From positions 173,808 to 237,807 of the forward strand of contig JBAZNP010000001.1 in NCBI GenBank assembly GCA_041649155.1: DNA of 64,000 bases, read 5' to 3'. The stretch's first letter is position 1, and each line of letters starts with the position of its first letter. The DNA is from Patescibacteria group bacterium. Its GTDB lineage: Bacteria; Patescibacteriota; UBA1384; XYA2-FULL-43-10; 1-14-0-10-43-13. Positions 8,054-28,016 of this stretch are shown one piece after another. A program made the position numbers and the translations under genes. The notes beneath the pieces were generated by a model, which was not told the DNA's origin, did no database searches, and was given only the letters and a program-made list of their open reading frames with translations.

Positions 8054-8137
8054 AGAAAAATACTTGCATTATTTACATATTGAGAGTTTTTTGATAGAAT
8101 TTGACTGTCTTAATTCAAAAGATGTTTTTTAAATTAT

Positions 8138-9674: not shown

Positions 9675-9724
9675 AATAACCTTTCTTATTTATAATTATA
9701 CGTTACTTATAGTCAACAATAAAG

Positions 9725-10822: not shown

Positions 10823-11087
10823 TACTTTTTTCAATTACTTCTTTGGCTTTGTTAATTATTGCTTCTTCAATACTCTTGGAAGTTTCTTTATTGATGGGAT
10901 GGAATAAATTTATTTGCCTAATCCCAATTTGCTTTGTGGGGTAGGTTATCCGATAGCCAGAACCATCAGCTTTTACGTGTATCCCAATAGAACTTAAGTA
11001 GATGCTCTGATTAACTACCAAGCTCGCAAACGCAATTAGACCATCTTTTGCCTTAATGGGGATAATTTGTACTTCAGATATTTCCAT
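10785..11087 (-). CDS. spoVG: SpoVG-family nucleic-acid-binding protein
   Basis: MEISEVQIIPIKAKDGLIAFASLVVNQSIYLSSIGIHVKADG...FHPINKETSKSIEEAI aligns to the SpoVG core (MEVTDVRLRRV...AIASITLD...HDIRV...HPIN). Confidence 0.6.
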   Translation of the reverse strand: MEISEVQIIPIKAKDGLIAFASLVVNQSIYLSSIGIHVKADGSGYRITYPTKQIGIRQINLFHPINKETSKSIEEAIINKAKEVIEKSNDRYNSHNFEAE

Positions 11088-11316
11088 CGTTTACTCCTTC
11101 TTTTTCTTTCTGTCTTATTCGGAGGTCTATTTTCATAAGTAATTCAAAGAAGCCGACTAAATTGCTTTTCATATCTGCAATCTCATCAACAGAAAGAGCG
11201 TGGCCGTAAAGTTGTTCAAGGGGTGTAGATTGTTTTTTGGTTTCTTGCATAAAAAATATCCTCGAATAGAGGATACTTCTTAGATTATGGTCGCTACTAT
11301 GCTACTGAATGGTCTC

Positions 11317-11991
11317 TTATGGTCTCAAATGGTCTTTGTCTTTATTATTGACTCTTACCATTAAGCTCAAATTACCGCAGTTATTGACTAATTCGACAGG
11401 TTTTAATTTTGTTCTAGTCCTTATCTTCTTAATCCTGTCGTTTATAATAATATTATTTAGTGTTTTATCATTTGCGTCAGATTCGCTTAAACCGAGTTCG
11501 CTCAATAGCTCCTGCCTTGAAAGGTAACCGTTATTAAGAACTATCTTATTGAATATCTTGTAAAGATTTTTATCTGTTTGAAATTTGAACGGATTGTCCT
11601 TGATATAACCAATCCCAGAACTAGGACTATACCAGTTTGTAGTTTCTGGCTCGGCAATCTGTTCTTTCTTAGTTTTGCCTTTTCTTAATTGTTCAAGGGT
11701 TAGTCTTCGTATTTCCGCTTCCTCTCTCTGTTTTGTAAAATCAGGGGCAATAGCCGTATAAGTTACTGGCTCAGGGAAATTAAATTGGGGCATCTCTATT
11801 TTTCCAAGGCGTTTCAAGTTTTCTGCAGCTGAGGCTGCCGCATCTTTTACGGCAGACAACATAGTTCCAGAAATAATATCTTTTGGGATTATGCTGTTTG
11901 CTTTTACTAATTCGCCAAGACCTGAAAAATTATCCGAGGATTCGGGAAGATTATCTAGGTCTAAATCAAATTTTTTACTATTTTCGCTCAT
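11317..11991 (-). CDS. hypothetical protein
   Basis: 224-aa ORF on the island with no recognisable motif. Confidence 0.4.
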   Translation of the reverse strand: MSENSKKFDLDLDNLPESSDNFSGLGELVKANSIIPKDIISGTMLSAVKDAAASAAENLKRLGKIEMPQFNFPEPVTYTAIAPDFTKQREEAEIRRLTLEQLRKGKTKKEQIAEPETTNWYSPSSGIGYIKDNPFKFQTDKNLYKIFNKIVLNNGYLSRQELLSELGLSESDANDKTLNNIIINDRIKKIRTRTKLKPVELVNNCGNLSLMVRVNNKDKDHLRP

Positions 11992-12016
11992 ATTATTACT
12001 GCTTTAGGTTCGTTTT

Positions 12017-12898
12017 TTAGAACTTCATTTCAGGCACTTTTTTAGTTTTAATTCTATCATCCATAGTATCTATATTTTCTAGTAGTTGCTTATCAGGAAT
12101 TTTTATTGCTATCTCTTTTGATAAATTAAGGTATTTCCTAGCTTCTCGGTATCGGTACATTGTCCTCAGCTGATTGGCATAATTATAAAGAGCTAGTGCT
12201 TTTTCTGGCAAATCGTTATTTTCTTCTGAGATACTAATCGCTTTGAGAAAAAACTTATCAGCTTCTTTGTGTAGTAATTTCAATCCTTTTTTGTCTTTTC
12301 TATTATACAAGAGATGCTCTAATCTTTTCTCAATCAACCAATGTTGTAACCCATTCTTTCCAATTTTATTGTATCGTAATTCCATTGAGCGATAGCCGTA
12401 TGCTTGGCCAATCATTGAATAAACAGTTGACATAAGAGCAGAATCTTTTGTCTTATCTGCTATGCCCTCTGCTTCCTTGAGACTTTGTGTTGCATTTTCT
12501 TCTAGGTCACTTAGCTCTTGCTCAAGCGTTTCATATTCAACTTGTTCTCTTTCAAGCGAAAACTCAAACCATTCAGGCGAGAGTTTTATTCTTTTCATTC
12601 TGTCTATACTTCTTAGTTTCTTGTGAAGTGAGAGCAATCCTTTATAACACAAAGCGATAGCTTTTATATCCTTGTCTACCAATCTGTTGGACAAGCGTAT
12701 TGTTTCGTTGGTTATGACCAAAAGCTGTTCTGTATCTCTCACAGGGTCCAAAGAACGATTAAGCTCCAGACCACAATTTAATCGCATAACCACATTAGAA
12801 GAAGAATTAAAAATATCAAGAAACATCTTTGCTGCTTCCTCTTTATGCCCAACTACGATCATTGCTTCGGCTTGGCTAAATTTATCTTCTTCGGACAT
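12017..12898 (-). CDS. hypothetical protein (helical, possibly TPR-like)
   Basis: 293 aa. Overlaps the upstream gene by 17 nt, which suggests an operon. Confidence 0.45.
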   Translation of the reverse strand: MSEEDKFSQAEAMIVVGHKEEAAKMFLDIFNSSSNVVMRLNCGLELNRSLDPVRDTEQLLVITNETIRLSNRLVDKDIKAIALCYKGLLSLHKKLRSIDRMKRIKLSPEWFEFSLEREQVEYETLEQELSDLEENATQSLKEAEGIADKTKDSALMSTVYSMIGQAYGYRSMELRYNKIGKNGLQHWLIEKRLEHLLYNRKDKKGLKLLHKEADKFFLKAISISEENNDLPEKALALYNYANQLRTMYRYREARKYLNLSKEIAIKIPDKQLLENIDTMDDRIKTKKVPEMKF

Positions 12899-13829
12899 AT
12901 TTGTATCTTATACTTAATAAAAATATTCTAAGTTTATTGGGGATTACCTTTTTTAGAAAAAATTTGATATCCAGAGGGTATTTGCTAAACCAAATTCTTT
13001 TTAAGGCAGAGGAGCTGGACACAAAGTAGTTACGGCACGACCCTCTAATCATTCTGTTATCTTCCTGAACACGTTTATCTGAAATTTCAATGTATCCTCT
13101 TAAATCGTTCCAGCAGAAACAAGCCACAATATCAGTAGATAGCGGTATTGTCAGCTGGATATTCTTTTGACCCAAGCCATACCCATAAAATCTTTGCCAC
13201 TGCAAATCAGGATTAAACAAATGGCAAGGTTCATCAGAAGTTATGAACTTAGCTTTACCTTTTTTTGCTGAGCATAAGAAAGATAAGTTCATATGAACGA
13301 GCATTTCTGTTATATCTGGCAACAGATTTGACAAAGTTAACTTATGAGCGTCTGTCTTATAGCTTCTGAGTTCATTGGATTTCTTCGGAGGTATATTATG
13401 AGCAGCTTCCATCCGCTCTGTCATTTCAATAATCTGGTCTAAGTTCTGTTCAATGTTTTCCTTTTGACCTTTAGTTCTTAGCATCATTGCGGCAACAAAA
13501 GCGCACAATATAATATGTTCTTCATTAGACAAGGGTTTTCTTTTTGCAATCTTATCCTGAAAAATGAGGGCATACTTATCTTCCAGCTCAGAAAGAGAAA
13601 TTTCAATTGAGTAATCATAAACGTTATTGGCACAAGAAGCTTTAGGGGATTTTAACGAGTAAATATGTTTGCTAACAAAAGCTTTCTCAACTTTCTTGAG
13701 TTCTTTTGTCTTGCCGTCTTTGCTAAATATCCATATCCGCGGGTCGTTGCCCGACTGACTTGGGTCTGAAAATTGCTTAAGATAGCATTGAGAAATATAA
13801 TGTTGTCGCTTAGGATTACCCATAAGCAA
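12882..13829 (-). CDS. DUF4238-like protein
   Basis: The N-terminal RQHYISQCYLKQF motif resembles the DUF4238 signature (HYvPqfYLrxF). Confidence 0.4.
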   Translation of the reverse strand: MLMGNPKRQHYISQCYLKQFSDPSQSGNDPRIWIFSKDGKTKELKKVEKAFVSKHIYSLKSPKASCANNVYDYSIEISLSELEDKYALIFQDKIAKRKPLSNEEHIILCAFVAAMMLRTKGQKENIEQNLDQIIEMTERMEAAHNIPPKKSNELRSYKTDAHKLTLSNLLPDITEMLVHMNLSFLCSAKKGKAKFITSDEPCHLFNPDLQWQRFYGYGLGQKNIQLTIPLSTDIVACFCWNDLRGYIEISDKRVQEDNRMIRGSCRNYFVSSSSALKRIWFSKYPLDIKFFLKKVIPNKLRIFLLSIRYKYVRRR

Positions 13830-13883
13830 AATATAGTTCTATATGGGCAATAAATCAAGGAAAAGTGTGTTTAATCTAGGGGA

Positions 13884-14573
13884 TTAAAGGTCCAGTAACT
13901 TTTCACCAAGCGAAGTGCTTAATTGCCATTTCATACTGCCATTTGAGAACATTTCGTTTATCATACCTAGCTCGTGCTGGTCTGCCCATTCTTTTGGAAA
14001 GGGATAAGCATCTTGATTCTTGCTGACCAAGTCAACACAATAAGAAATATCAATACAATCAGTAGCTAATTTTGCTTGACCGTCTTTATCTCTTACTTTC
14101 CCATAATTGATATCCCAGTTCTTAAAATCCTCAATTTTTTCTTTATCATCAAAAAGACTGTAATAAGATTTCTTGTCTTTGGAATGTAACTCAACGGCCG
14201 CTTTTTTCAGCTCTTCATCGGTAGGTTTTTGCGAGAAAACAATTAGTTTCCAAGTCTTCCCAGATTTTTGATAGCTAGTGACTTCACTGTAGGAAATTGT
14301 TGGCGTTGGGTTAGCTTTTGGTGTTTCTGTTGTTTGTTGGGCGGATTGCGCAGGTTGTTCTTTCTTCTCGTTTGTTGAACTTTTATCTGAACTTGAAGAA
14401 GAACCTGCAAGAACAAAGAACACAATAATTACTGCTCCTGTGGCAATCCATTTATTTCTTTTGTTCCAATCTGTTTTTGCCCAAACATACCAAGTAAGAA
14501 AGAACGGCCAGATACATATTGCCAGTATTACTCCCCACCATTTTTTGTACCATACTTGTTTCTCTTCTTTCAT
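13884..14573 (-). CDS. membrane protein, paralog A1 of 22032..22673
   Basis: N-terminal TM segment (WWGVILAICIWPFFLTWYVWAK) followed by a Ser-rich linker. Clear similarity to the protein at 22032..22673. Confidence 0.5.
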   Translation of the reverse strand: MKEEKQVWYKKWWGVILAICIWPFFLTWYVWAKTDWNKRNKWIATGAVIIVFFVLAGSSSSSDKSSTNEKKEQPAQSAQQTTETPKANPTPTISYSEVTSYQKSGKTWKLIVFSQKPTDEELKKAAVELHSKDKKSYYSLFDDKEKIEDFKNWDINYGKVRDKDGQAKLATDCIDISYCVDLVSKNQDAYPFPKEWADQHELGMINEMFSNGSMKWQLSTSLGEKLLDL

Positions 14574-14575
14574 TT

Positions 14576-15163
14576 TTACCCTTTCTTGTTAATATTTTTT
14601 ATGCCCTTAAAATAAAGTTCAGCATCCTTTGAGCTTGGACCAGATATAATAAAATGTTCATCTTTAGCCATTTCGGGATATTTTATAGTTAATGAGTTTT
14701 TTAGCATTCCATTATTAAATAAAATATCAATCGCTTTCTCATATAAAACACTTATCATTGAATTTTGCCCGACAAATATAAATCGTTTGTTGGTCATAAT
14801 CATTTGACCTGCATCTATCCTCTCAACCGCTTCTACTGATTTTTCAGAGGTTTTACTTCCCGCTGTTACAGCTCCGCCTAAAGCACCGAGTGGACCGAGC
14901 AATAATCCTCCGACAACCGCTCTGCCAGCAACACCTTTTTTCTTTTCGGTGCTGATTGTATGACTTACAATTGCCATTCTTTGAGATGAGAAAGTAGCAT
15001 ATGCATTCTCATCTGGTTCAAGGTTAAAATCAGTTTTTATCGGTTGGATATGACCTTCCAATATCTCGTTTTTTCTATGCTCTTCCTCAGCTTTTTTCCT
15101 ACTTTGCTCATCTTGATAATTTTCATAACCTTTTTTGATTTTAGAAATCAGGTCAAAACCCAT
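14576..15163 (-). CDS. glycine-zipper TM plus bacterial-PH-like protein, paralog B1 of 21432..22010
   Basis: KKGVAGRAVVGGLLLGPLGALGGAVTAGSKT is identical in both paralogs. The C-terminus (TNKRFIFVG...) is bPH_2-like. Start set at MGFDLISKIKKGY by homology. Confidence 0.5.
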   Translation of the reverse strand: MGFDLISKIKKGYENYQDEQSRKKAEEEHRKNEILEGHIQPIKTDFNLEPDENAYATFSSQRMAIVSHTISTEKKKGVAGRAVVGGLLLGPLGALGGAVTAGSKTSEKSVEAVERIDAGQMIMTNKRFIFVGQNSMISVLYEKAIDILFNNGMLKNSLTIKYPEMAKDEHFIISGPSSKDAELYFKGIKNINKKG

Positions 15164-15250
15164 AACGAACCTCTTTCTATGATTACTATTTCTGATAGTG
15201 TGACTTATAATCCGTAGACCTATAGTCATAATCTACCACAAAATGGTAGT

Positions 15251-15478
15251 ATGATAAAAGAGCAAGAGCTAAAATCTATCACAAAGAAATTCGGCCAACG
15301 AATTAGAGATGAGCGTACGAAGCAAGGGATATCCCAAGAGGAGCTTGGTTTTAGGACTGGTTTGGATAGAACTTATATTTCAGGTATTGAAAGAGGCGAA
15401 AGAAATCCGTCACTTAAAAACATCGCCAAAATAGCCATTGCTCTAAAAATAAACTTGAACGAGCTCTTTACCCTCTAA
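15251..15478 (+). CDS. XRE-family HTH transcriptional regulator
   Basis: QEELGFRTGLDRTYISGIERGERNPSLKNIAKIAIAL is a classic Cro/C1-type HTH. Confidence 0.7.
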   Translation: MIKEQELKSITKKFGQRIRDERTKQGISQEELGFRTGLDRTYISGIERGERNPSLKNIAKIAIALKINLNELFTL

Positions 15479-15527
15479 CAGTCTTCAAAATTTGGCTTTA
15501 CTAAGCTTTTTTTGGTATACCAAGATT

Positions 15528-16094
15528 ATGATGAATTTCTCAAACAATGTTTTTGGACCGCAACCGCCTAGGTTCTTACCGATAAAACCGCCAAAGCGGA
15601 AAGTTTTTATTAGCTTTCATCACGCCAATGACCAACAAGCTTACAATATATTGAAGAGATTATTTTCTGATAAATACGAGGTGTTCGAGGACCATTCGTT
15701 AAACAACCAGCTAATCAATAGCCAAATAGCCGAAAATATTGACCGAGCAATACGAGAGCGTTTTATAAAAGGGTCTTCAATTACAATTGTTCTGTGCGGT
15801 GAAGAGACCCACAAAAGAAAATATGTTGATTGGGAGATAAACTCAACATTACTACACGAACACGCATTGCTCGGAATTGTTCTACCGACAGCTACAAAGA
15901 ATGTTCAAAACCAGCACATTGTTCCAGACAGATTGGCTGTGAACGCAAATTCTGGCTATGCCCACTGGGAGCTGTGGGATAATTGTGCTGGAAGTGCAGA
16001 CAATATAAATATGGCAATTGAAGTGGCATTGTTAAATAGTAAAAACAAAAAGCTACTAGACAATTCTCTTCCTAAGATGCATAGGAATTTATGA
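15528..16094 (+). CDS. TIR-like domain protein (DUF1863 / ThsB-like)
   Basis: KVFISFHHANDQQ and KYVDWEINS motifs typical of MTH538/TIR-like domains. Overlaps the downstream gene by ATGA. Confidence 0.55.
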   Translation: MMNFSNNVFGPQPPRFLPIKPPKRKVFISFHHANDQQAYNILKRLFSDKYEVFEDHSLNNQLINSQIAENIDRAIRERFIKGSSITIVLCGEETHKRKYVDWEINSTLLHEHALLGIVLPTATKNVQNQHIVPDRLAVNANSGYAHWELWDNCAGSADNINMAIEVALLNSKNKKLLDNSLPKMHRNL

Positions 16095-16516
16095 AGAACG
16101 ATGAAAAAATAAAGCATCTAGAGTTCATTCAAGGCGTCATCAACCGTTTGGCCAATAACTCCTTCTTGATTAAGGGATGGCTAATAACAATTACTTTAGC
16201 TGGACTGAGCTTTTATCTGACTCAAAAGAAGACCACCATTCTACCAATTCTATTGGCAACAGCAATTCTTTTTTGGTTTTTGGATTCTTATTATCTTAGA
16301 CAAGAGCGATTGTTTAGAAGATTGTATGCCGATGTGGTAAAAGGAAAAATAGAGCCAATCTTTGATATGGATGTTTCAAGATATCAAGACAAAATCCAAA
16401 ACTCATTTGCCACAATGTTCTCTTATCCCAATTGCTTTTTATATATTGCGATTATTGCACTAATATTGGTTCAAATTGTGCTGTCTCTCAAAATTGAGAT
16501 AAGCATAAAATTCTAA
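16091..16516 (+). CDS. small multi-TM protein, SLATT-like putative membrane effector
   Basis: 141 aa. An N-terminal helix followed by 2 to 3 hydrophobic TM segments. Translationally coupled to the TIR-like gene. Confidence 0.35.
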   Translation: MKNDEKIKHLEFIQGVINRLANNSFLIKGWLITITLAGLSFYLTQKKTTILPILLATAILFWFLDSYYLRQERLFRRLYADVVKGKIEPIFDMDVSRYQDKIQNSFATMFSYPNCFLYIAIIALILVQIVLSLKIEISIKF

Positions 16517-18159
16517 CGAGTTAAAGTTAATTCGGGTATTCTCTTGAGAAAAGCATACTCGGACAGAACTTTAATTTCGTTATTTAATTGCAGAATTGAA
16601 TCATAGTATTCAGTTCTGAACTTATACACCAAGGGGAGCCATAGTTGCGATTTTATAAAATGAGCTTGTGATTCACCTTGTTGAGTCTCAACTTGTGGTA
16701 AAGAAAGCAGTGTTTCAAACAATTCAGTTGGCACTGCTTTTTTGATTTTCCTATTTTCGACTATTATCTCGTTCCAAAATAGGTCAATATACGCTCTTTT
16801 TCTTTTTGGACTTGCCGTCAAATATGCCTTGAATACATCCTCTGCTAAAAACATTAGCTCTTCAAACACCCGTGTGTTATCAGCTCTATTTACTTGAAGC
16901 TTGCCTAGTTTCTTTTCTACAACTTTCAGCTCGTTCTTTATTCTTGTGGTTTGTCGGATATAAGTTTCACTACCAATTACTCTGTTGCCAAGGTCTTCTT
17001 CATAGTTAGATCTCTGCTTTTCTAGCTTGTTTTGCTCGGACAACAAGTTGTTTCTAGCAATATCAATATGATTATGATTTTGCGATAGATATTTTTTTGC
17101 CTGAAAGACTATTTTTCCAATCAGCCGTTTGGGTAATTGAAGATTTTTGAATAACTCTTCTACCATTTTCTCCAAGTCCTTAGTGCTTATGTTCTGTAAT
17201 TTATTTGAGTGAACAGAGCTACTTGCGGGACAATGATAATACGCTTTTTCTTTAGCGCCGTGATGCTCAGCGGTGTAATGCCGACCACATTTCCCACATT
17301 TTATATAACCGCTTAAAAGAAATTGATGTTTTCTTTTTCTGTCGACATATTTGTTGTGTTGCTCTAAAATTTCATTGCAAGTTTCAAAAGTTGTTTGATT
17401 TATGATTGGCTCGTGCTTTCCTGGATAAATTTCACCTTTGAATTCAATTTTTCCAGTATAAAAAACTTCTTTAAGAATGTTGATCATCGCTTGCTTCCCA
17501 ATTTTGTTGCCAGTTCGTGATCTTAAGCCTTCCTCAAACATAATGTCGCACAGATTTTCAACAGAATATGATCCGGTAGCAAATAGCTTAAATGCTTTTT
17601 CAAGTAATGGTGCGACTACCTTATCTAGTGCTATAATATTTCTCTCAAAACCACTCGTTACTGTTTCATTAACCACATTCTTATAACCTATTCGTGCAGG
17701 ACCAGCCCACCAACCTGCTTGAATCTTCTCCATCATTGAAATACTAGTTTTTCTGCCTGTTATCTTTGGGGTTAGTGCATTAACTGCAGCCAAAATTGAA
17801 TCCATAAATCTACCCTCGGGTGAGTCATCTAACATAGGCTGATTTATTGATCTGATCTTCGTTCCAGATTTTAGTAGCATTGATTTAACCGCGAAATGTA
17901 GAGACTCATCTCTAGCCAATCGGTCAGTATCAATAACGTAAACGTAATCAACAGAGTTATTCTTACAATAAGCAATCATTTCTTGCAGTCCTGGGCGGTT
18001 CGGATTGCTTCCAGATAAACCTTCATCTTGAAAAACTTCAAGCAAGTTGCCTCCGTCTTCGGCAATAGCTATCTTTCCTTTGCTCATTTGCGTTGGGATA
18101 GAGCAATCCTTTTTGGCCTGTTCGTCAGTGCTTACACGTCCATAAATTACACAATTCAT
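16513..18159 (-). CDS. large serine recombinase (second copy)
   Basis: IYGRVSTDEQ with the catalytic Ser, VIDTDRLARDE, a recombinase domain, and a Zn-ribbon Cys cluster (CGKCGRHY...HCPA). Confidence 0.85.
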   Translation of the reverse strand: MNCVIYGRVSTDEQAKKDCSIPTQMSKGKIAIAEDGGNLLEVFQDEGLSGSNPNRPGLQEMIAYCKNNSVDYVYVIDTDRLARDESLHFAVKSMLLKSGTKIRSINQPMLDDSPEGRFMDSILAAVNALTPKITGRKTSISMMEKIQAGWWAGPARIGYKNVVNETVTSGFERNIIALDKVVAPLLEKAFKLFATGSYSVENLCDIMFEEGLRSRTGNKIGKQAMINILKEVFYTGKIEFKGEIYPGKHEPIINQTTFETCNEILEQHNKYVDRKRKHQFLLSGYIKCGKCGRHYTAEHHGAKEKAYYHCPASSSVHSNKLQNISTKDLEKMVEELFKNLQLPKRLIGKIVFQAKKYLSQNHNHIDIARNNLLSEQNKLEKQRSNYEEDLGNRVIGSETYIRQTTRIKNELKVVEKKLGKLQVNRADNTRVFEELMFLAEDVFKAYLTASPKRKRAYIDLFWNEIIVENRKIKKAVPTELFETLLSLPQVETQQGESQAHFIKSQLWLPLVYKFRTEYYDSILQLNNEIKVLSEYAFLKRIPELTLTR

Positions 18160-18178
18160 ATTTATCCTTTACTTAAAA

Positions 18179-18276
18179 GTGAGGTAACAGCATAGAAGTT
18201 TCTAGTTACGACACAAGAAACGGCTGTTACCTCACCATTATAAAAAACTCCCATATCGCTATCTTGTGTCGTAACT
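18179..18276. repeat. interleaved pair of inverted repeats (A-B-A'-B') just upstream of the recombinase start
   Basis: A is GTGAGGTAACAGC at 18179 and A' at 18223. B is AGTTACGACACAAG at 18204 and B' at 18263. Both stems are perfect, 13 and 14 bp. Confidence 0.6.
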
Positions 18277-18310
18277 TTATTATAATTTTTTTGGCTGAAA
18301 AAGACAAATT

Positions 18311-18601
18311 TCATATCATTTTGTGATAACGAGATTTCAGGTACGTTAGATTGTTACACTTTCTACACGATAACTTGTTTGCTACCGGAGGCAAATACAA
18401 GGTTCCGACCCTCCTTCCGCAAGAAGGACAAATGAACCAAAGTCGCTCGCCTCCAAAATTACAAGCTGATGATGTCAAAGATATCTTGAGTCCCATCGCT
18501 TCAATCTTTGATTTTAGTCTGAGTGCAATAAGCTCTCTTTTTGATTCCCGGCATAGTTCGTTAATGTTTATTTTTTGACATTGTTCTGTTAAAAATTTCA
18601 T
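18311..18601 (-). CDS. small Zn-ribbon protein
   Basis: CPSCGRR...CRKCNN is a four-Cys ribbon. Confidence 0.4.
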   Translation of the reverse strand: MKFLTEQCQKININELCRESKRELIALRLKSKIEAMGLKISLTSSACNFGGERLWFICPSCGRRVGTLYLPPVANKLSCRKCNNLTYLKSRYHKMI

Positions 18602-18627
18602 AAAAAATTCTCCGAAATCATTTGGCC

Positions 18628-19266
18628 TTAATTATTTTCACTTTGGTTATCGTTGCCATCGTAATTATTTATTACTTGCTGGTTGTTCGCCAGAAAAGCA
18701 TTTTTAGTAGATATCTTTACATTTAGTTTTGGTTGCTTGAGCTCTTTTAGTAAAATAATACTTGCGTTAAGCTGCCTCTCTGCTTTTTCTTTGTTTTTGC
18801 TTAATTCTTTCATATAATTTATCTTTAATTGGTCCATCGTAAAGGAACCGTCTTTTTTTACAAGACATCGGTTGTATACCATATCACACCTCATCGTCTG
18901 CCAATAATTAGCCACTATTCTATCAACTAACATTAGCTCTATCCCGGTTTTACAATCAAATTCTTTGGCTAGATCATTTCTCATTTTCTTTAACGAATCA
19001 TCGTATTCTTCAAAATCTATGTGTCCAACCCAATGTCCATTTTGTAGACCATTAAGCTTAATGATCTGCACTCCTAAGTCACTCATTCTTTTTTCTTCTG
19101 CTGAGGTCCTTTTGGGTTTTTCTAATAGTGAGAAGAATTCTTTTTGTCGAGAATCATTGTGAGAGCTAACGCCCTCCGTTAAAAACTGCACCACTATATC
19201 TCTGCGCTCTGCCTTTTGGCCCTCGGTTAATTCTGATGGTTTTTTATTTTTCATTTTTATCCTCAC
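18628..19266 (-). CDS. hypothetical protein
   Basis: 212-aa ORF on the island. Confidence 0.4.
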   Translation of the reverse strand: MRIKMKNKKPSELTEGQKAERRDIVVQFLTEGVSSHNDSRQKEFFSLLEKPKRTSAEEKRMSDLGVQIIKLNGLQNGHWVGHIDFEEYDDSLKKMRNDLAKEFDCKTGIELMLVDRIVANYWQTMRCDMVYNRCLVKKDGSFTMDQLKINYMKELSKNKEKAERQLNASIILLKELKQPKLNVKISTKNAFLANNQQVINNYDGNDNQSENN

Positions 19267-19399
19267 AATTTTTATTAGATAAATTTATATTCTCAAAAAT
19301 TTGATCAACAAAAATCTTTGCTAGTCGAGCAGCAAACAAATCTTCAATTTGCTCTGCAGTAAGATTTTTAATTTGTTGATTTTTTGATTTCATTATTAT

Positions 19400-19903
19400 T
19401 TACTTAACATTCTTATTAGCCCACTTGCTCATTTCTTCCGCTTCGTGTTTATCCATTCCTTGCTTCTTCTTTGTTTTCAGAGTTTTGTTTTCTTGTTTTA
19501 TCTTTTCTATTTCCTGTTTCTGGCTAGTGTATACATCGGTCCCTACACCGGTGTTAAAATAGCTTCTAATGCCATCGCCAACCTTGGACCATTCTTCTTC
19601 CCAGGCTTTCCAATTAGACTCACTCTTCCAGACTTTACAGTTTTTGAAAGCGTTTACGACAAAAACCCATCCTCGGCAAAACAGCACTTTTTTGTTTTGC
19701 GAGAGTTCTTCTTTTGCAATTTCAAAGTCCCCATCTGATAGCCCAGTTTCAAAAATGATTTTCTTGTCAGTTAGCTGAAAAACACCTGTCATATTCATCG
19801 GCAGACAGGTCATAAGATAGATAAAGACATATCTTGATTGCCAAGTTGCATTTTGAACGAAGTCATCATCCCAGACCCTTGCTTGTATTTGTCTTGCTTT
19901 CAT
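19400..19903 (-). CDS. hypothetical protein
   Basis: 167-aa ORF. Confidence 0.4.
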   Translation of the reverse strand: MKARQIQARVWDDDFVQNATWQSRYVFIYLMTCLPMNMTGVFQLTDKKIIFETGLSDGDFEIAKEELSQNKKVLFCRGWVFVVNAFKNCKVWKSESNWKAWEEEWSKVGDGIRSYFNTGVGTDVYTSQKQEIEKIKQENKTLKTKKKQGMDKHEAEEMSKWANKNVK

Positions 19904-19938
19904 CTTTCGCCTTAATCTTAATATTCATATTTTTGTGG

Positions 19939-20187
19939 CTAGCTGTTATGCAGCCTTGATTTCAAAGTTCGCTGAGCGGAATAATATTGAGTCGTTATAA
20001 GTTTTAATCGTCCAGAAAAATGAGCCTCTGCAGCTGTCTCAATTCCGTTTTTTCTCTGAAAAACAAACGCTACCCGACCATCGCCAGAAGTTCGGTCAAG
20101 AGATAAGAGATTATAGCCGAGAGCCATTAGAGCGGAGGCATTCGCAAAGTCACAAGTTTGATAAAAGTCGCTTTCAGAAATGTTCAT
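19939..20187 (-). CDS. small hypothetical protein
   Basis: 82-aa ORF. Weak evidence. Confidence 0.25.
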   Translation of the reverse strand: MNISESDFYQTCDFANASALMALGYNLLSLDRTSGDGRVAFVFQRKNGIETAAEAHFSGRLKLITTQYYSAQRTLKSRLHNS

Positions 20188-20276
20188 CTTAATCCTTTCA
20201 ATAAATAAAAAACGAGGTTAATTACTATACCTCGATTTTATAGAAAGGATTGTTGAGTCAATTTTGAAAAAGTTGA

Positions 20277-21110
20277 CTAAAAGTTACGAATTACTGATTT
20301 GCTTCTCCAACTAAATAGTTCGTCGTTAGTATTTAATTTCTTTTTAATTTGATTATTTATATCATTCATTGAATCATACACTTTGCGCCACTGGTTCTTT
20401 TCGGGCTCGGAATTACCAGACATTTCCGTGTAGATTTCATCCCAACAAATAGCTTTTCCTGCTGGCTGATTAAACATCATACGACAGAGATAGTGGTTGT
20501 TTTTGTGAAGCGGCATTGCACATTTGGTTTCGCCAATAATTACTTCTGCCGAATCGTCGTTATAATCAATTTGAAAATTAGAAAGTGATATTTTCTTAGG
20601 TTTCATACGTTTTTCTCGTTCTTGTATAGTCTTATCAACGTTTTCTTCCATCTTTGCAAAACCTTGTTTGCAAATCTTTGAATGCTCGTAACAAAGTTCT
20701 TGGATTGAATCGGCAATTTCTTGTTCTTCAGGTAAAATTCCTACTGTGTATCCATTGATAATAAATTCTTTATCTACTAGTCCAAGAAATGATAATAAAT
20801 TTGTTTGCTCCGTTTCCCAATAGCATTCATATTCTAGAACATCGCCAAACAGCGACTCTGGTAATTGCGGGCAATCCTTGGCCAATTCCTTAAAGTCTTC
20901 TCTTGAGAGAAAATTATCCAACCCTAGCTTTAGATTGGCATATGCATAATTTAATGCTCCGTCAGGATAATAGACCATTTCGCCACAAACACTCTCTAAG
21001 ATCTGGTAAATAAGTGAGATATAAAAACGGAAATGCCTAATAGCGAATTTATATTCTACTGCCTGTAGAAATGCAAGTTTATCTTTTATGTCAAAATCTT
21101 CAATATTCAT
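20277..21110 (-). CDS. hypothetical protein
   Basis: 277-aa ORF. Confidence 0.45.
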   Translation of the reverse strand: MNIEDFDIKDKLAFLQAVEYKFAIRHFRFYISLIYQILESVCGEMVYYPDGALNYAYANLKLGLDNFLSREDFKELAKDCPQLPESLFGDVLEYECYWETEQTNLLSFLGLVDKEFIINGYTVGILPEEQEIADSIQELCYEHSKICKQGFAKMEENVDKTIQEREKRMKPKKISLSNFQIDYNDDSAEVIIGETKCAMPLHKNNHYLCRMMFNQPAGKAICWDEIYTEMSGNSEPEKNQWRKVYDSMNDINNQIKKKLNTNDELFSWRSKSVIRNF

Positions 21111-21286
21111 CTTTATCTTTATACTTATACTTACTTAAACCAACGTAACAAATTAGAACTGATTACTCAATTGTCCATTGTGTTTTTGATAATTTTGAGG
21201 CATAATTCAAATTGTCAGAGCGATCTGATAAACACAATCTAGTTGCACCTAACCCTTACCAGCAATGATAAGGTATGGTGCCAAAT

Positions 21287-21400
21287 CCTCGGTTAAAAAC
21301 AATGACGGTCTAGCGACCGCACTTTTTAACCGAGGTCTGTGCTCGAAAGGGCGCAGGATAGTCCCGAAAGGGGCTGTCGTGGTTCGCTAGGCCATTTTTG
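21287..21400. other. structured intergenic element: 13-bp-stem hairpin plus two GAAA-tetraloop hairpins
   Basis: CCTCGGTTAAAAA..(23 nt)..TTTTTAACCGAGG, then GCTC-GAAA-GGGC and GTCCC-GAAA-GGGGC. Lies about 30 bp upstream of the paralog B2 start. Confidence 0.3.
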
Positions 21401-21431
21401 TATTTTATTAAATATTAACCAAGGACTAAGA

Positions 21432-22010
21432 ATGGGAATGCTTGCAAATATCAAAAAATCTTATGGGGATTATCAGGACAAAAAAGCAAAGGAAAAAGCT
21501 GAGGAGGAAGCAAGACAGAAATCTATTTCACAGGGAGAGATTGAGCCCATTAAAACTGATCTGAATCTTGAAGATAGAGAAATCGCCTATGCAGCGTTCT
21601 CTGCCAACAGGATGGCGCTGGTGGCTAAAACTGCCAGTAAAACGCAAAAGAAAGGTGTTGCAGGCAGAGCAGTAGTCGGAGGTCTGTTGCTGGGACCATT
21701 GGGGGCCTTGGGAGGTGCTGTAACCGCCGGAAGTAAGACAACCGAAAAAACATTTGAAGTTGAAGAAAAAATTGACAACGGTACTATAACTTTCACAAAT
21801 AAACGCTTTGTATTTATAGGGCGCGATATTATGGCAAATATCCCTTACGACAAAGTGGTTGATATGAAATTTGAGCAAAAGATTTTTGGTACCGATCTTC
21901 ACGTTAGATATCCCGAAATGTTAAAGGGAGAATATTTTCATTTATCAGGAGAAGATTCAAAAATTGCTGAACTATGGTTTAAGGGCATACAAAAAATAAG
22001 CAAGCGGTAG
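21432..22010 (+). CDS. glycine-zipper TM plus bPH-like protein, paralog B2
   Basis: Start at MGMLANIKK with an AAGGA ribosome-binding site. Paralog of 14576..15163. Confidence 0.5.
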   Translation: MGMLANIKKSYGDYQDKKAKEKAEEEARQKSISQGEIEPIKTDLNLEDREIAYAAFSANRMALVAKTASKTQKKGVAGRAVVGGLLLGPLGALGGAVTAGSKTTEKTFEVEEKIDNGTITFTNKRFVFIGRDIMANIPYDKVVDMKFEQKIFGTDLHVRYPEMLKGEYFHLSGEDSKIAELWFKGIQKISKR

Positions 22011-22031
22011 TTATTAAAAGAAAGGAAAATT

Positions 22032-22673
22032 ATGGTCCAATTTGGAGAATCGGAAACTAAAAAAACAGAAACCAGCACAAGTGAATGGTATAAACACGGT
22101 CTAGGATTAGTTGTGGCTATTTTGTTTTTGCCGTTTTTTGCTATTTGGTATATCTGGGCAAAAAGTGGATGGAACAGTGTGACAAAATGGAGCTTAACTG
22201 CAGTTGTTGCAGTTTTGTTTATTATCATTGCATCTTCTGGCAATAATTCACCCCAACAAGCATCAAACAGCAACAGCACGAGTAACACGACAGCAAATAC
22301 AACCACGACTACCGCTCCGCAACAGTCTCAGGTAAAACCAGCTTACGAGATAGTAACCGATGGTAGCCAAAATGCACTAGCAAAACTAGTGGTTTACACC
22401 CCAGAAAAAGATGATCAAAAGCTGATTGCAATAAATGATGAGCTTCTAAACAAATACAAAGCAAATCACTCAAATATTTATTTTGATTACTTTGACGACA
22501 AAGAGATTGCTAAAACTTATTTTGATAAACAACTTGATGATATTGTTAGTGAATCAGAAAAAGACGCTATGTTCACTCATTACGTCGCAAATATGAAATA
22601 CAATCTATCAAGTGGTCTCAAAACATTTTCTAAAAATGTGAATGGTGACTGGCAATCCATAAAAAGTTACTAA
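22032..22673 (+). CDS. membrane protein, paralog A2
   Basis: The N-terminal TM segment (LGLVVAILFLPFFAIWYIWAK) matches paralog A1. Contains an S/N/T-rich linker. Confidence 0.5.
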   Translation: MVQFGESETKKTETSTSEWYKHGLGLVVAILFLPFFAIWYIWAKSGWNSVTKWSLTAVVAVLFIIIASSGNNSPQQASNSNSTSNTTANTTTTTAPQQSQVKPAYEIVTDGSQNALAKLVVYTPEKDDQKLIAINDELLNKYKANHSNIYFDYFDDKEIAKTYFDKQLDDIVSESEKDAMFTHYVANMKYNLSSGLKTFSKNVNGDWQSIKSY

Positions 22674-22681
22674 CGATACAA

Positions 22682-23740
22682 TCAATATTTCTTAATTGCT
22701 CTTTTAACATACTCATCCACTGATATTTTTTTGGCTTGAAATCCAGTCCAAGCGCTTTCCAAATCTTCGTTTTTAATAAAGATATCCTCTTTCAACCCCA
22801 ATCGTATCGGTGATTTGAATCCATTCCTTTTTCTTATTTCTTCAAGAATTTGGGTATTGAACTGCTCTATTAAATAATTTCTAATATCATTTAAGAATTT
22901 TGAATAACGATTACAAATATAAATATCATAATAGTTAGTAACGCTTCCTTCTTGATACAAATGGTTAAATTTCTTTCGTATTCTGCCTCTTGATATGTCT
23001 TGTCTTCTTTTTACTTCTTGAAAAGTTATGTGACGAGCTCTCTCGACTCCCAGTGAATGATTGTCCGGCTCTGCCCAGCCTAATGACTGATTCACACTAA
23101 ACTGTAAAAATTCAGTAGCGACAGAAAGCTCTCTTGAAGATTGTTGCGTAGGCGACTCTTTGGAAAAAGGGTATTCCACAAGAAAAATATCTTCGCTACC
23201 TACGATCGTCGTCTTTGGTCGGGCTTCTTTGTTCGCCAAGTAGGTCCAAAGGCTATAAGAATGCTTCACAGATCGCAATCTGTCTGCTTTTTTTCTGATC
23301 TTGATCGTTGCTCCGTCGAGGTGGTGGAAGGTAGGCAAAATATAAAACGAATTATTCACCTTCTGTTGTTTCCATTCAATAAAATATGCCGAGAAGTGAT
23401 CAACCAGAATCCCAAAAAAAGAAAATTCAAAAAATTGAGCAAGATCATTCGCGCCTGAATAAATCCGGGATTCATTTTCTAAAAAATATTCCATCAAATT
23501 GCTTCTAAGTACGGCATTCTTGTTTTCTAAATCAAAATAGTCTGAATTATATGTTACATATCCAGGACGGCCAGCGGGTTTTGTGAGCGGAGGATAAAGC
23601 TCGTCCTTAAATCGGTTTGTTTCTATGAATAATTGAGTTCCATCCCTAGTTGCTTTTTCTCTTGCATCAAAACCTTTTACGAAACGAAGAAATTCGTCTC
23701 GTTGGCCTCGCCTTAATTGATCTTTATTTCCGTTTCTCAT
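22682..23740 (-). CDS. hypothetical protein (partner of the 838-aa membrane protein)
   Basis: 352 aa. Overlaps the upstream gene by 17 nt. Confidence 0.45.
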   Translation of the reverse strand: MRNGNKDQLRRGQRDEFLRFVKGFDAREKATRDGTQLFIETNRFKDELYPPLTKPAGRPGYVTYNSDYFDLENKNAVLRSNLMEYFLENESRIYSGANDLAQFFEFSFFGILVDHFSAYFIEWKQQKVNNSFYILPTFHHLDGATIKIRKKADRLRSVKHSYSLWTYLANKEARPKTTIVGSEDIFLVEYPFSKESPTQQSSRELSVATEFLQFSVNQSLGWAEPDNHSLGVERARHITFQEVKRRQDISRGRIRKKFNHLYQEGSVTNYYDIYICNRYSKFLNDIRNYLIEQFNTQILEEIRKRNGFKSPIRLGLKEDIFIKNEDLESAWTGFQAKKISVDEYVKRAIKKY

Positions 23741-26240
23741 TGACTCCTTTCAGAATCTTGATGATTTTCGCAACTTGTTCTCGCTTTTCCAACCACTCAA
23801 CAAAATCGTCAAGTACAAATTCGAGATCATAGTAGAACATCTCGTCAGATCCAATTTTTTTGACTAGACTGCTTGGGTGTTCTACAGTTTCCGTGTAATA
23901 GCCTCCGCCATTCCCATCCCAAACTTTAGGTAATCTGCTAATTTCCTGAGTAATGTTTTGATAATGCCTATTAAATCTTTGCATTTCGTCTTCTATCAAC
24001 CCAAAAGTACTATTAAACCCTAGAGCGCTTTTGACTTTATTTGCAGATGCTAGTGCTTGATACATAAAGCCTTCTTGATAAAATTTACCATCAATATTTT
24101 CTAAGAATTCCTTAATGTAAAACCGGTCATTATCAAGTTCTGAAACTAACCACGTGAATGCTCCAATAATGAGCGGAAGCCTGAATAGATGCAGGATCTC
24201 TTGTTGATCAGTAATCTTGTCTCGCAAAACAATTAGTGTATATAAATAAGACTTAATTAAAAATCTGAAAAGTTTTTTGTCACGATGAACTAAGGCTGTC
24301 AGCAGTCCCTTCTCTAAAACCTCTCGCAACTCCACTTCTTTGACTAGGGATTGTGGTACTAATAAAATTATTTTTAAGGACAGATTGATGGAGTCAATAA
24401 AATGGTCCGCCAAATCCCACTTCTCTAGATAGATCAATCTGCCGAGCCAGGTATATTGTATTTTTAGTATATCAGCGACATTTCTCCAATTTTGCGACCC
24501 GACATCAGCTCTCAGCATTTTGTTGGATTGCTGCAATATTTCTTCAATTTTTTTCTCTACGACGGGGTTTGTTTTTTTGAGGTATTCTTTTATTACCTCA
24601 TCAACAAGCCATTCTAAGGGCGTAATTACCTTGCCCTCGACTAGTTGCTCCGTCTCAATTCGCTCCCTGTAATCCAAAAGAATATCTCTAGCCGTTACTG
24701 GCAAGTCAAAAGCTGATAACTCCTTCATAGAGATGGCTTTATTTTTTTTGACTAGAAGCCTTGTCGTTTTCTGAATCACGTCGACGGGATACCCATCAAG
24801 CACTACTTGACCGTAAGCAAAAAGAATATTCATATACACAGCAGAAAGTTTTTCATCGGATTTAACCAGATTATACAAATCACAAAATAACTGCCATATT
24901 TTATCGTTAATGTAATATTCTTGATGCTCAAAGGCGCTCGGCTCAACCTTTTCGTTGAACCCTAGTTTATTTTTGGCATACTCACCGCATAAAATCTTTT
25001 CATAGGCGCTTAATAGCCCTGATAGAATCTCCTTGTTAGAATTAGTCTCTGTGTCATTTTGGAGCTCTGTAAAAAAATAACAAGCCGTGTCCTCTAGCCA
25101 ATTAAAATCTGGCGCTGTAGTTAGTAGTGGCCCAGTGTTTTTAGATTCATATGAGGACTTAATAGGATACATCAATCTATTCGAGGCGCTTACGGGTTCA
25201 AATCTTTGTGGAAATGCCCAGGGGCGATTTCTATCAATGTACCTTTTTGCTCTCAAGTACTTCTGTAACACGCTAGAAAAGAAAATCGGACCAGAGGAAG
25301 CATCCTCATAGTTTTTATTCCGTGTTAAATCATAAAATAGAGCACTTCCCAAACTCAGCAAGCGAGAAATGCTTTTTTGTGAAGCTAACACGATTGTCCA
25401 ACTGGTAAAAAAGTTTGAATACAAACGAAAACTTTTAACCCTTTTGTCTTTATATAGGCGAAAACTGGATACAAAAGGATTGTCGGATGCATTTACAATT
25501 CGTATGCTTTGGTAAGCCTCCTGGTACATTCTTCTGAACAGACTCAAAGGTTTAAGAGAAATCACATAATGGTCTTTGAAGATTATGACCCCGCACAATG
25601 ACATTGTAAATAAGAAAATTGATATTCCGAATGATATTACAGGAAGGCTCTTCGTAATTCCCAAGAAAAGAAGTGAAAATAATGAAAAAAGGATAGTCAC
25701 AACCAAAAGTCGCATAAAATGATTGCCAACTTTTTCTTTATTTACATACTCAGTTATCTTGTCAGAATATTTTTCCGTTGAAAGTTGAAATCCAACAGCA
25801 TATAACGCAAATATTAAACCAAGTAATGCTCCTGTGGCACCGACAATTATCTCCAATGTTAATTTTGCAATATTGCTAAAATCAGCAAGATCAAAAGTGT
25901 CTGCAATAAAATTGTGTCTAAAAAAACCTCCGTGACTTATAAATGCCAAATCTAATAGGAAGAGAAAACAAGAAATAATAAGAAAGTAGATGATAAGTTT
26001 GGATGAATTCTTTAGAATCTCATAATCAATCAATATACTTTTCAATTCTTCTAGTCTATTGAATTTCCAGACTCGCCAGTGCTCTTCTTCTTTTTTGTAA
26101 AAATAATAAAGAAAACCGGCAACCAGATCAAAAGTCCTAGCCAAAAAATTCCTTCGTTCTTCCCCAAAGTTCGGAAGGACCCTATCTTTAGATTTTCTAG
26201 CTTTGCGATAGAAAAATCTGATTGTATTTATGATAATCAT
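23724..26240 (-). CDS. large multi-TM protein of unknown function
   Basis: 838 aa. Several N-terminal hydrophobic helices, then a cytoplasmic domain of about 600 aa with no known motifs. Confidence 0.5.
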   Translation of the reverse strand: MIIINTIRFFYRKARKSKDRVLPNFGEERRNFLARTFDLVAGFLYYFYKKEEEHWRVWKFNRLEELKSILIDYEILKNSSKLIIYFLIISCFLFLLDLAFISHGGFFRHNFIADTFDLADFSNIAKLTLEIIVGATGALLGLIFALYAVGFQLSTEKYSDKITEYVNKEKVGNHFMRLLVVTILFSLFSLLFLGITKSLPVISFGISIFLFTMSLCGVIIFKDHYVISLKPLSLFRRMYQEAYQSIRIVNASDNPFVSSFRLYKDKRVKSFRLYSNFFTSWTIVLASQKSISRLLSLGSALFYDLTRNKNYEDASSGPIFFSSVLQKYLRAKRYIDRNRPWAFPQRFEPVSASNRLMYPIKSSYESKNTGPLLTTAPDFNWLEDTACYFFTELQNDTETNSNKEILSGLLSAYEKILCGEYAKNKLGFNEKVEPSAFEHQEYYINDKIWQLFCDLYNLVKSDEKLSAVYMNILFAYGQVVLDGYPVDVIQKTTRLLVKKNKAISMKELSAFDLPVTARDILLDYRERIETEQLVEGKVITPLEWLVDEVIKEYLKKTNPVVEKKIEEILQQSNKMLRADVGSQNWRNVADILKIQYTWLGRLIYLEKWDLADHFIDSINLSLKIILLVPQSLVKEVELREVLEKGLLTALVHRDKKLFRFLIKSYLYTLIVLRDKITDQQEILHLFRLPLIIGAFTWLVSELDNDRFYIKEFLENIDGKFYQEGFMYQALASANKVKSALGFNSTFGLIEDEMQRFNRHYQNITQEISRLPKVWDGNGGGYYTETVEHPSSLVKKIGSDEMFYYDLEFVLDDFVEWLEKREQVAKIIKILKGVNEKRK

Positions 26241-26353
26241 TACTCTTGTTTTAGCACTTCCAGATCAGCTAAACAAGACAAAACGCTAGGCATAACTCCT
26301 TTTCCAGATTTTTTGATATGATCTAATTAAGGAGTAAAGAATGAAAGAGGCAA

Positions 26354-27211: not shown

Positions 27212-27278
27212 ATAAGGGATTGAATTATTGATATTTGATATAATAAGACAAACTTAACTAATTATAAATGAGTAAAAT

Positions 27279-27908: not shown

Positions 27909-28004
27909 GTTGGCTATTTAGCTACAAGTACTCAAGGCAGCAATTTTAACACTTATTCTTTGCCAGTAGTCATAATTTGTAAGTAATTTTATAAAATTTG
28001 AATT

Positions 28005-28016
28005 CTCGGGGAGCCA
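28005..28016. repeat. direct repeat of the tRNA-Asn 3' terminus (putative attR)
   Basis: TCGGGGAGCCA is identical to tRNA positions 8203..8213. Confidence 0.4.

Follow-up and report, generated by a model that had tools for sequence, protein, structure and literature searches.

The window analyzed here is a 64-kb stretch (64,000 nucleotides) of contig JBAZNP010000001.1 from a Patescibacteria group bacterium (assembly GCA_041649155.1). It contains two copies of a two-gene membrane module that face each other 6 kb apart, to the right of a tRNA-Asn gene and in the company of two genes for large serine recombinases (LSRs). In each pair the first protein is termed A (A1 and A2) and the second B (B1 and B2); all coordinates are those of the window, and the loci used for comparison carry numbers prefixed with L. 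The arrangement is very probably the product of two different LSR-driven elements, E1 and E2, inserted in tandem at the 3' end of the tRNA-Asn gene, each with its own A-B module, for which exclusion is the proposed function.

Two diverged copies of a membrane module

The two modules comprise four genes:

14576..15163, minus strand: A1, PH_gly_zipper protein of E1
13884..14573, minus strand: B1, with a two-helix membrane anchor, a serine/threonine-rich linker and a 135-amino acid (aa) C-terminal domain; in E1
21432..22010, plus strand: A2, PH_gly_zipper protein of E2
22032..22673, plus strand: B2, with an anchor of the B1 type and a C-terminal domain unrelated to that of B1; in E2

The original prediction had described these genes as two paralogous pairs. 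All four open reading frames (ORFs) are present and match the gene calls of locus L001 (ENA ERZ27247363 k141_656675), which is 100% identical to window positions 11432-32010. A1 and A2 share 107 of 190 residues (56%) in an ungapped alignment (E 6e-60). The relationship between the B proteins is weaker than had been implied: their 32% identity (E 7e-20) is confined to the N-terminal 142 aa, that is, to the membrane anchor and linker, and similarity between the C-terminal domains of B1 and B2 is not detectable by alignment.

A1 (window 14849-14941) and A2 (21648-21740) contain the same 31-aa core, KKGVAGRAVVGGLLLGPLGALGGAVTAGSKT, as had been noticed at the outset; the nucleotide identity there is 78% (73 of 93 nt), against an anticipated value of about 75%, and 18 of the 31 third codon positions differ. 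The A1 and A2 genes as a whole agree at 63% of their DNA positions. No exact run common to both modules exceeds 13 nt, and the best inverted-repeat arm between them reaches 72% over 97 nt. Synonymous divergence of A1 and A2 is saturated (dS 2.45, dN/dS 0.14). The motif GRAVVGG.LLGPLGALGGA.TAGS, which lies in the core, is invariant or nearly so across 22 diverse A homologs; since the core is kept across the whole A family, its identity in A1 and A2 reflects protein constraint and not a recent exchange between the two genes. Judged by this divergence, the module copies are old paralogs. Comparison with orthologs yields dN/dS values of 0.05 for A1 (L011/L012), 0.06 for B1 (L011), 0.06 for A2, and 0.125 for B2 (L052), by which measure all four genes are under strong purifying selection.

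Between the two modules lie an XRE gene, a TIR gene, a gene for a 141-aa membrane protein, the second serine recombinase gene and six small ORFs. Thus, the modules do bracket the XRE and TIR genes and the second recombinase in opposite orientation, as had been proposed, with six small ORFs in place of the five that had been counted. A SLATT gene had also been listed; the 141-aa protein has no SLATT family match at E <= 0.01 in Pfam, in which it gives a weak DUF3278 match alone.

Probable insertion of two elements at a tRNA-Asn gene

Both elements are delimited by copies of the tRNA-Asn 3' end, and each has its recombinase gene at its left end:

8138..8213, plus strand: tRNA-Asn(GUU), integration target (ARAGORN; Rfam tRNA, 69.1 bits)
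8205-8213, plus strand: core copy 1, GGGGAGCCA, the last 9 nt of tRNA-Asn
8214..16641: E1, an 8,428-bp insertion that includes one core copy (16633-16641) and is absent from L052
8184..9674, minus strand: LSR1, large serine recombinase (Pfam Resolvase and Recombinase)
16633..16641, plus strand: core copy 2, GGGGAGCCA, at the E1/E2 junction, within the 3' end of the LSR2 ORF
16642..28007: E2, about 11.4 kb, lying between core copies 2 and 3
16513..18159, minus strand: LSR2, large serine recombinase (Pfam Resolvase, Recombinase and Zn_ribbon_recom)
28008..28016, plus strand: core copy 3; the match to the tRNA end extends over 11 nt (TCGGGGAGCCA), with a T-rich stretch after it

The core GGGGAGCCA occurs three times in the window, always on the plus strand, for an expectation of 0.21; three copies were reached in 0 of 100 shuffles. 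Core copy 3 is, to judge from its sequence, a displaced tRNA 3' end. The 12-nt palindrome ATTTTATAAAAT occurs twice (16650-16661 and 27986-27997), for an expectation of 0.15, and two copies were likewise reached in 0 of 100 shuffles. The first begins 8 nt beyond core 2 and the second stops 10 nt short of core 3, which puts each just inside one end of E2. A pair in these positions would be expected if integration had cut a single attP site in half.

An empty-site comparison for E1 is provided by L052 (contig JAMCZZ010000019.1, assembly GCA_023484645.1), whose B2 homolog, P0050, is labelled by NCBI as a Patescibacteria group bacterium metagenome-assembled genome product. L052 has the left-flank genes of the window (Big_7, guanylate kinase, PAP2 and cupin), and its tRNA-Asn region (4491-4573) is 100% identical over 83 nt to window 8131-8213. 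The next alignment, of L052 4565-6893 with window 16633-18963 (86.6%), overlaps the tRNA alignment by 9 nt, and L052 7271-10399 matches window 19298-22427 at 91.7%. In L052, the tRNA-Asn gene thus runs uninterrupted into E2, without E1, and A2-B2 are oriented as in the window. Because the tRNA-Asn gene of L052 is joined straight to E2, E1 is an extra 8,428 bp inserted between tRNA and E2. The homology of L052 to the window, and also that of L010, ends or begins exactly at core copy 2. In its left part E2 is 87-92% identical between the window and L052, compared with 71-77% for the host flanks; this higher similarity indicates that E2 moved horizontally.

Two minor differences separate the flanks of L052 and the window. 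An 84-aa GIY-YIG gene (L052 4253-4507) immediately upstream of the tRNA-Asn gene is absent from the window, and the order of the cupin gene and its neighbour differs.

The 3' ends of the recombinase genes record the same junctions. The last 10 codons of LSR1 run antisense through the tRNA-Asn 3' end, which gives the protein its tail ...WLPELDSNQ; the recombinases beside an intact tRNA-Asn (LSR1, L052 and L053) all end in WLPELDSNQ, encoded by antisense tRNA. LSR2 is 94% identical to the L052 recombinase, and comparison with L052, L053 and L010 shows that its tail after ...WLP consists of 39 aa encoded by the end of E1, in place of ELDSNQ and the stop codon. E1 has swapped the last six codons of LSR2 for a 39-codon tail. 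The swap may impair the enzyme, in which case E2 would be locked in place. The new tail corresponds to window 16513-16632, and the gene for the 141-aa protein of E1 overlaps the new LSR2 stop codon by 4 nt.

Each element has relatives of its own. Those of E1 are L011/L012, L002 and L017. L011/L012 are 88-93% identical at the nucleotide level from the DUF4238 gene through A1 into the XRE gene and carry different cargo beyond; in L011 the homology to the window stops at 15447. L002 holds a single E1-like element in the order Ltp, A, 257-aa, 61-aa, SpoVG, 354-aa, HTH_17 and a recombinase that overlaps a tRNA-Asn, as LSR1, 37-38% identical to it, also does. Direct copies of GGGGGAGCCA are found in L002 at the tRNA-Asn and 6.9 kb away, the displaced copy (3640) standing beside a terminator hairpin. 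Relatives of E2 at a tRNA-Asn are L052, L010 and L053; L010 is 69-83% identical to E2 at the nucleotide level, and its end lies at the 3' half of a tRNA-Asn. More remotely related to E2 are L013/L014, with a recombinase 26-29% identical to the others.

A single copy of A is present in every E1- or E2-related locus that has A, and in all 18 genome loci with a full-length A homolog. A2 is 94% identical to the A protein of L052 and 73% to that of L010, compared with about 57% to A1; for A1 the closest is the A protein of L011 (95%). Since the relatives are single-copy and A1 and A2 are each closer to the relatives of their own element, the copies were brought in separately and not duplicated in place.

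Gene content of E1

E1 contains the following genes besides LSR1, A1 and B1:

9725..13829, minus strand: backbone and cargo of E1, encoding 369-aa, SpoVG-like, 58-aa, 224-aa, TPR and DUF4238 proteins
10785-11087, minus strand: SpoVG-like protein (Pfam)
12017-12898, minus strand: TPR protein (Pfam)
12882-13829, minus strand: DUF4238 protein (Pfam; PADLOC DUF4238-Pers, E 5e-13)
15251..15478, plus strand: XRE-family helix-turn-helix regulator (Pfam HTH_3, E 9e-18), divergent from A1 and part of E1
15492/15528-16094, plus strand: ThsB-like TIR protein (Pfam ThsB_TIR, E 4e-22; PADLOC PDC-M50B, E 7.5e-15)
16091-16516, plus strand: 141-aa membrane protein (PADLOC PDC-M50A, E 8e-39)

The genes for the 369-aa, SpoVG-like and 58-aa proteins are syntenic with L002. 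The A1-B1 module is co-directional with LSR1, and the divergent pairing of an XRE gene with A recurs in L004, L011 and L017. The TIR protein and the 141-aa membrane protein together match the PADLOC candidate system PDC-M50. Defence-type cargo in E1, namely the DUF4238 gene and the PDC-M50 TIR pair, lies near the module.

Similar genes are seen next to A elsewhere. A TIR protein and a membrane protein are encoded directly 3' of A in L017 (10826-12153), and the ORF immediately upstream of A in L030 is DUF4238-like by eye.

Gene content of E2 and the LOOT RNA

E2 contains the following features besides LSR2, A2 and B2:

18162..21110, minus strand: backbone of E2, encoding 50-, 96-, 212- and 167-aa proteins, DUF5659 (19939-20187) and a 277-aa protein
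21246..21378, plus strand: LOOT RNA (Rfam RF03000; 69.2 bits, gathering score 46.4), 53 nt upstream of A2
22682..27908: presumed distal cargo of E2, encoding a 352-aa protein, an 838-aa DUF2254 membrane protein, a 285-aa protein and an S-adenosylmethionine methyltransferase (Pfam)

The backbone is syntenic with L010, L052, L013 and L053, and its DUF5659 protein is a Pfam match. The 167-aa protein has a DnaD-like N-terminus and matches a PHROGs DnaD-like helicase loader (E 1.5e-9). The distal genes at 22682-27908 are assigned to E2 solely by their position inside core copy 3. No capsid or tail gene was recognised among the E1 and E2 proteins scanned.

The E2 module, made up of the LOOT RNA, A2 and B2, is divergent from the backbone in the window. 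The folding z-score of the RNA is -5.5 against shuffled sequence. Six further LOOT matches of 65-84 bits were found, in L052 (9215-9346), L010 (248-361), L013 (9814-9938), L018 (9715-9838), L053 (7811-7936) and L030 (18839-18960). In five loci (the window, L052, L010, L013 and L018) a PH_gly_zipper gene follows the RNA on the same strand, at a distance of 50-70 nt. The L053 copy precedes a B-type anchor gene at a locus that lacks A, and the L030 copy is not beside A; E1 has no copy. RF03000 is typed as a small RNA (sRNA) in Rfam, and the LOOT motif is not discussed in the main text of the paper that introduced it. From its recurrent position, the LOOT RNA may be a cis-acting leader of the A-B cassette. 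A scan for promoters and terminators stayed at background, with 34 sites compared to 30 expected.

RNA genes beside related elements

Other A-carrying serine recombinase elements adjoin transfer-messenger RNA (tmRNA) or other tRNA genes, as in L013 (1-69), L016 (6789-7187) and L007 (2616-2697), and in these three the recombinase 3' end abuts or overlaps the RNA gene. The 3' ends of tRNA and tmRNA genes appear, from these positions, to be a general target of such recombinases. In L013, a stretch of at least 28 nt that begins at the tmRNA 3' end (64-95) recurs as an inverted copy (about 1800-1827) a short way upstream of the neighbouring serine recombinase gene; the recombinase is thus flanked by inverted copies of a presumed att region.

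Group I intron matches are found directly upstream of a tRNA 3' half in L010 (6770-6946, minus strand; 46 bits, just below threshold) and in L004 (10752-10947, minus strand; 85 bits). The L010 half is the tRNA-Asn at the end of the E2-like element, and L004 has an HNH-like ORF upstream. Some of these hosts appear to have tRNA genes split by introns.

Protein A

A1 and A2 bear a precomputed label of Pfam PF27000 (PH_gly_zipper), marked weak in their case, and 34 of 38 homologs carry the label too. The bPH_3 family (PF14470) matches A2 with 23.8 bits (cut-off 23) and A1 with 17 bits, and bPH_2 (PF03703) gives no match for A at E <= 0.01. In the AlphaFold (AF2) model of A (mean predicted local distance difference test score, pLDDT, 82) an N-terminal helix is followed by a long beta-hairpin, a PH-like sandwich and a C-terminal helix. 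The beta-sandwich and C-terminal helix are modelled with confidence; the zipper (residues 74-103) is placed at the tip of the hairpin with low confidence. Foldseek ranks the split PH domain of Vps36 first (E 6.6e-4), and numerous further PH domains come after it. The combination of a glycine zipper with a PH-like domain, which had been suggested from the sequence, is therefore borne out by the PF27000 label, the AlphaFold model and the Foldseek matches. A would accordingly be pictured as a cytoplasmic split-PH domain whose long beta-hairpin ends in a glycine-zipper loop that tethers the protein to the membrane.

The full-length A subfamily is rare, with 54 clusters at E <= 1e-30 among 1.8 billion representatives. 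A literature search for PF27000 found no published function of the family and no experiment on it. When viral contigs were scanned with the A profile, the matches had the glycine-zipper core only and not the full family. One such group is phrog_17658 of Firmicutes siphophages, which aligns with A over 41 columns (hhalign probability 98.7%) through the core GRAVVGGxLLGPLGA. Examples of about 165 aa are found in IMG/VR (L062 9803-10297, L057 9770-10297 and L066 9818-10315).

Protein B and the partners of A

The AF2 model of B1 consists of helices 3-33 and 36-57, disorder at 52-88 and an alpha/beta domain at 95-229 with a pLDDT of about 90. The B-type anchor is found with other C-terminal domains, including a staphylococcal-type nuclease, and the C-terminal domain of B1 also occurs on a different anchor. 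B would be a membrane-anchored protein whose variable C-terminal domain is probably exposed on the cell surface.

The neighbour of A is an anchored Ltp-type protein (PF07553) in L002, L007, L010, L013 and L017 (E 5e-24 to 2.5e-64); in L018 the anchored neighbour has DUF4352 instead. Ltp of Streptococcus thermophilus phage TP-J34 is a surface-tethered superinfection-exclusion protein of the lysogeny module, which is expressed by the prophage and blocks DNA injection by incoming phage (PMC3952083).

A and B are also joined covalently. In six natural fusions (P0035, P0079, P0099, P0101, P0106 and P0107) an A-like PH domain is combined with transmembrane helices, a linker and a C-terminal domain, and the P0101 fusion has the B-type anchor. 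The glycine zipper has given way to a short loop in four of the six (P0099, P0101, P0106 and P0107). Loss of the zipper in covalently anchored fusions fits a zipper that serves as a membrane tether and has become redundant. As protein architecture goes, these fusions link A and B functionally.

Interpretation

The direct cores, the recombinase tails and the L052 junction are very likely explained by two different LSR-driven elements in tandem, each with its own A-B module. E2 would have arrived first at tRNA-Asn, and E1 would later have integrated into the tRNA end regenerated by E2, producing three direct GGGGAGCCA cores. The facing modules would then be a by-product of tandem insertion and not a functional inverted repeat. 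Their opposite orientation follows from the design of the elements, as the E1 module is co-directional with its recombinase and the E2 cassette is divergent from its backbone. Excision of E1 would join tRNA-Asn to TAGTTGCG and yield a circle with the junction ...ACACCAA-GGGGAGCCA-ATTCACATT, and excision of E2, or of E1 and E2 together, would join tRNA-Asn to TAAAAAAATGATCG.

By analogy with Ltp, the A-B pair is tentatively viewed as a membrane-level superinfection-exclusion unit expressed from the integrated element, the likeliest of the roles considered if not one that we would call probable. Like Ltp, B would make contact with arriving phage, with A as its counterpart on the cytoplasmic side of the membrane; the different ectodomains of B would give E1 and E2 different specificities. 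The idea that the modules are two related exclusion or immunity cassettes had been raised in the original prediction as well. Its structural part stands, each cassette being located in its own recombinase-bearing element, and its functional part comes from context, namely the Ltp-type partners and a position typical of a lysogeny region. Such a position is also seen in L004, a terminase-bearing contig, with an XRE gene followed by a divergent B-like gene, A and a recombinase.

Several observations weigh against this account of the locus and its modules. No empty site was found for E2, whose right end is placed by core copy 3 and the palindrome only, and relatives of E2 do not keep the genes at 22.7-27.9 kb. 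A search of metagenome contigs for an empty tRNA-Asn site by means of the neighbouring cupin gene returned 13 loci; none of the six compared by ORF similarity had another window gene, and a tRNA scan of seven of the loci revealed no tRNA-Asn. About half of the genome A loci, including those of the oral Saccharibacteria (L020-L028), are without a recombinase within 10 kb. The pair is not obligate, given that L053 has a B-type gene behind the LOOT RNA and no A. B1 and B2 have no Ltp domain (no PF07553 match in the Pfam scan), and a fold search with B1 against the PDB returned nothing below E 0.3. PADLOC has no match for A or B, and PHROGs gives neither a functional label.

The main alternative to exclusion leaves the structure of the locus unchanged and assigns an abortive or pore-forming role to the module. 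On this view A-B might cause abortive infection or depolarise the membrane, might consist of a toxin and its immunity protein, or might help the element to persist or to transfer, with the zipper forming a pore or anchoring a complex; we regard this as somewhat less likely than exclusion. Glycine zippers are typical of pore-forming segments. Defence genes of an abortive type, the TIR/PDC-M50 pair, are found close to the module, the Firmicutes phage proteins with the same 41-residue zipper core are encoded directly upstream of the tape measure gene, and some A loci lie outside recognisable elements. Against such a role, the recurrent partner is of the Ltp type, a known exclusion protein; purifying selection and the fusions argue for a stable structural pair over a toxin/antitoxin pair; and the absence of A and B from PADLOC applies here too.

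A bolder version of the exclusion hypothesis, and a rather unlikely one, combines all of these parts. Together with the LOOT RNA, the PH_gly_zipper protein and its anchored ectodomain partner would make up a phage-exclusion cassette, not described before, of Patescibacteria serine recombinase elements, in which the RNA acts as a leader in cis and swappable ectodomains (Ltp, DUF4352, B1-type, B2-type and nuclease) set specificity. The PH_gly_zipper protein may interfere with the tape-measure-dependent injection channel, an idea suggested by the glycine-zipper core that A has in common with proteins encoded beside Firmicutes phage tape measure genes.

Two accounts that dispense with tandem insertion fare far worse. 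The facing modules had originally been read as the long inverted repeats of a composite or invertible segment. On that account they would be the arms of a composite transposon, or of a stretch of DNA turned around either by homologous recombination or by the serine recombinase encoded inside it. The modules are indeed oppositely oriented with a recombinase gene between them, and the LOOT-A-B cassette is found in both orientations within the E2 family, divergent from the backbone in the window, L052 and L013 and co-directional in L010. However, modules with 63% DNA identity, a longest exact run of 13 nt and saturated dS are ill suited as repeats, the cores are direct and not inverted, and L052 has E2 alone. 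Moreover, three assemblies that carry A2 have the same gene neighbourhood and arrangement, and inverted repeats of note around the cassette are present neither in the window nor in L010, the flipped cassette of which shows evolutionary shuffling. An invertible or composite segment is thus extremely improbable. Equally hard to credit is an in-situ inverted segmental duplication of one ancestral module followed by divergence in this genome, which would account for two paralogous pairs in the same A-then-B order 6 kb apart but is contradicted by the 73-94% identity of A2 to the E2 A proteins of other hosts (57% to A1), by the location of A1-B1 within an insertion absent from L052 and by the unrelated B ectodomains.

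Two short inverted matches were considered and treated as chance. One, an 18-nt match (15248-15265 and 22696-22713, 94%) that would seem to enclose the segment, lies in two coding regions in different frames and is 1 of 78 listed pairs. The other is a 13-nt inverted match of the E1 arm (8214-8226) in B2 (22631-22643), without an adjacent core.

Tandem insertion at a tRNA gene is in itself ordinary, textbook behaviour, and it removes the idea of an invertible or composite segment. What the locus provides is base-pair boundaries, attachment cores and an empty-site control for two serine recombinase elements of Patescibacteria, a group in which mobile elements and their defence cargo are poorly charted. 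In addition, the uncharacterised family PH_gly_zipper is tied by neighbourhood and fusions to Ltp-type surface proteins, which leads to a testable hypothesis on its function, and the orphan LOOT RNA gains a consistent genomic partner. New here, though of known kinds, are details of the A-B module, of its putative RNA leader and of the way recombinase and tRNA genes are arranged in Patescibacteria.

Comparison with known systems

The closest parallel to the locus as a whole is the tandem array of integrative elements or prophages at a tRNA site. The recombinase next to the tRNA end, the direct repeats of the tRNA 3' end at the junctions and the position of the newer element between the tRNA and the older one, together with the empty-site comparison, are all alike. 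In such arrays the usual integrase is of the tyrosine type, whereas here the enzymes are large serine recombinases whose ORFs cross the junction into antisense tRNA (WLPELDSNQ). The present host is also a member of the Patescibacteria with a genome of less than 1 Mb, and the elements are small (8.4 and 11.4 kb).

The TIR protein of E1 matches ThsB models of the Thoeris system, but its best PADLOC match is PDC-M50B. In Thoeris, ThsB pairs with a ThsA effector (SIR2 or Macro with SLOG), whereas the neighbour of the TIR gene in the window encodes PDC-M50A and not ThsA.

With PF27000 and bacterial PH domains, A1 and A2 have in common the glycine zipper of the family and the PH-like sandwich with a C-terminal helix. 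The resemblance to YdbS/YdbT that had been proposed does not hold: a bPH_2 match is lacking, the bPH_3 match is weak, and instead of the N-terminal transmembrane helices of the YdbS/YdbT (bPH_2) proteins A has a soluble charged N-terminal helix and a zipper inserted inside the PH domain, within its beta-hairpin. The phrog_17658 proteins are similar in size to A and have the same zipper core, but their flanking domains do not align, and their genes belong to the tail module, immediately upstream of the tape measure gene, and not to the lysogeny region.

Ltp is the nearest model for B (PMC3952083). B is likewise membrane-tethered, with a C-terminal domain presumed to be extracytoplasmic, and is encoded beside a repressor-type regulator in an integrated element. 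Ltp is anchored by a lipobox and acts alone, whereas B is anchored by a pair of hydrophobic helices and is co-encoded with, and sometimes fused to, a PH_gly_zipper protein.

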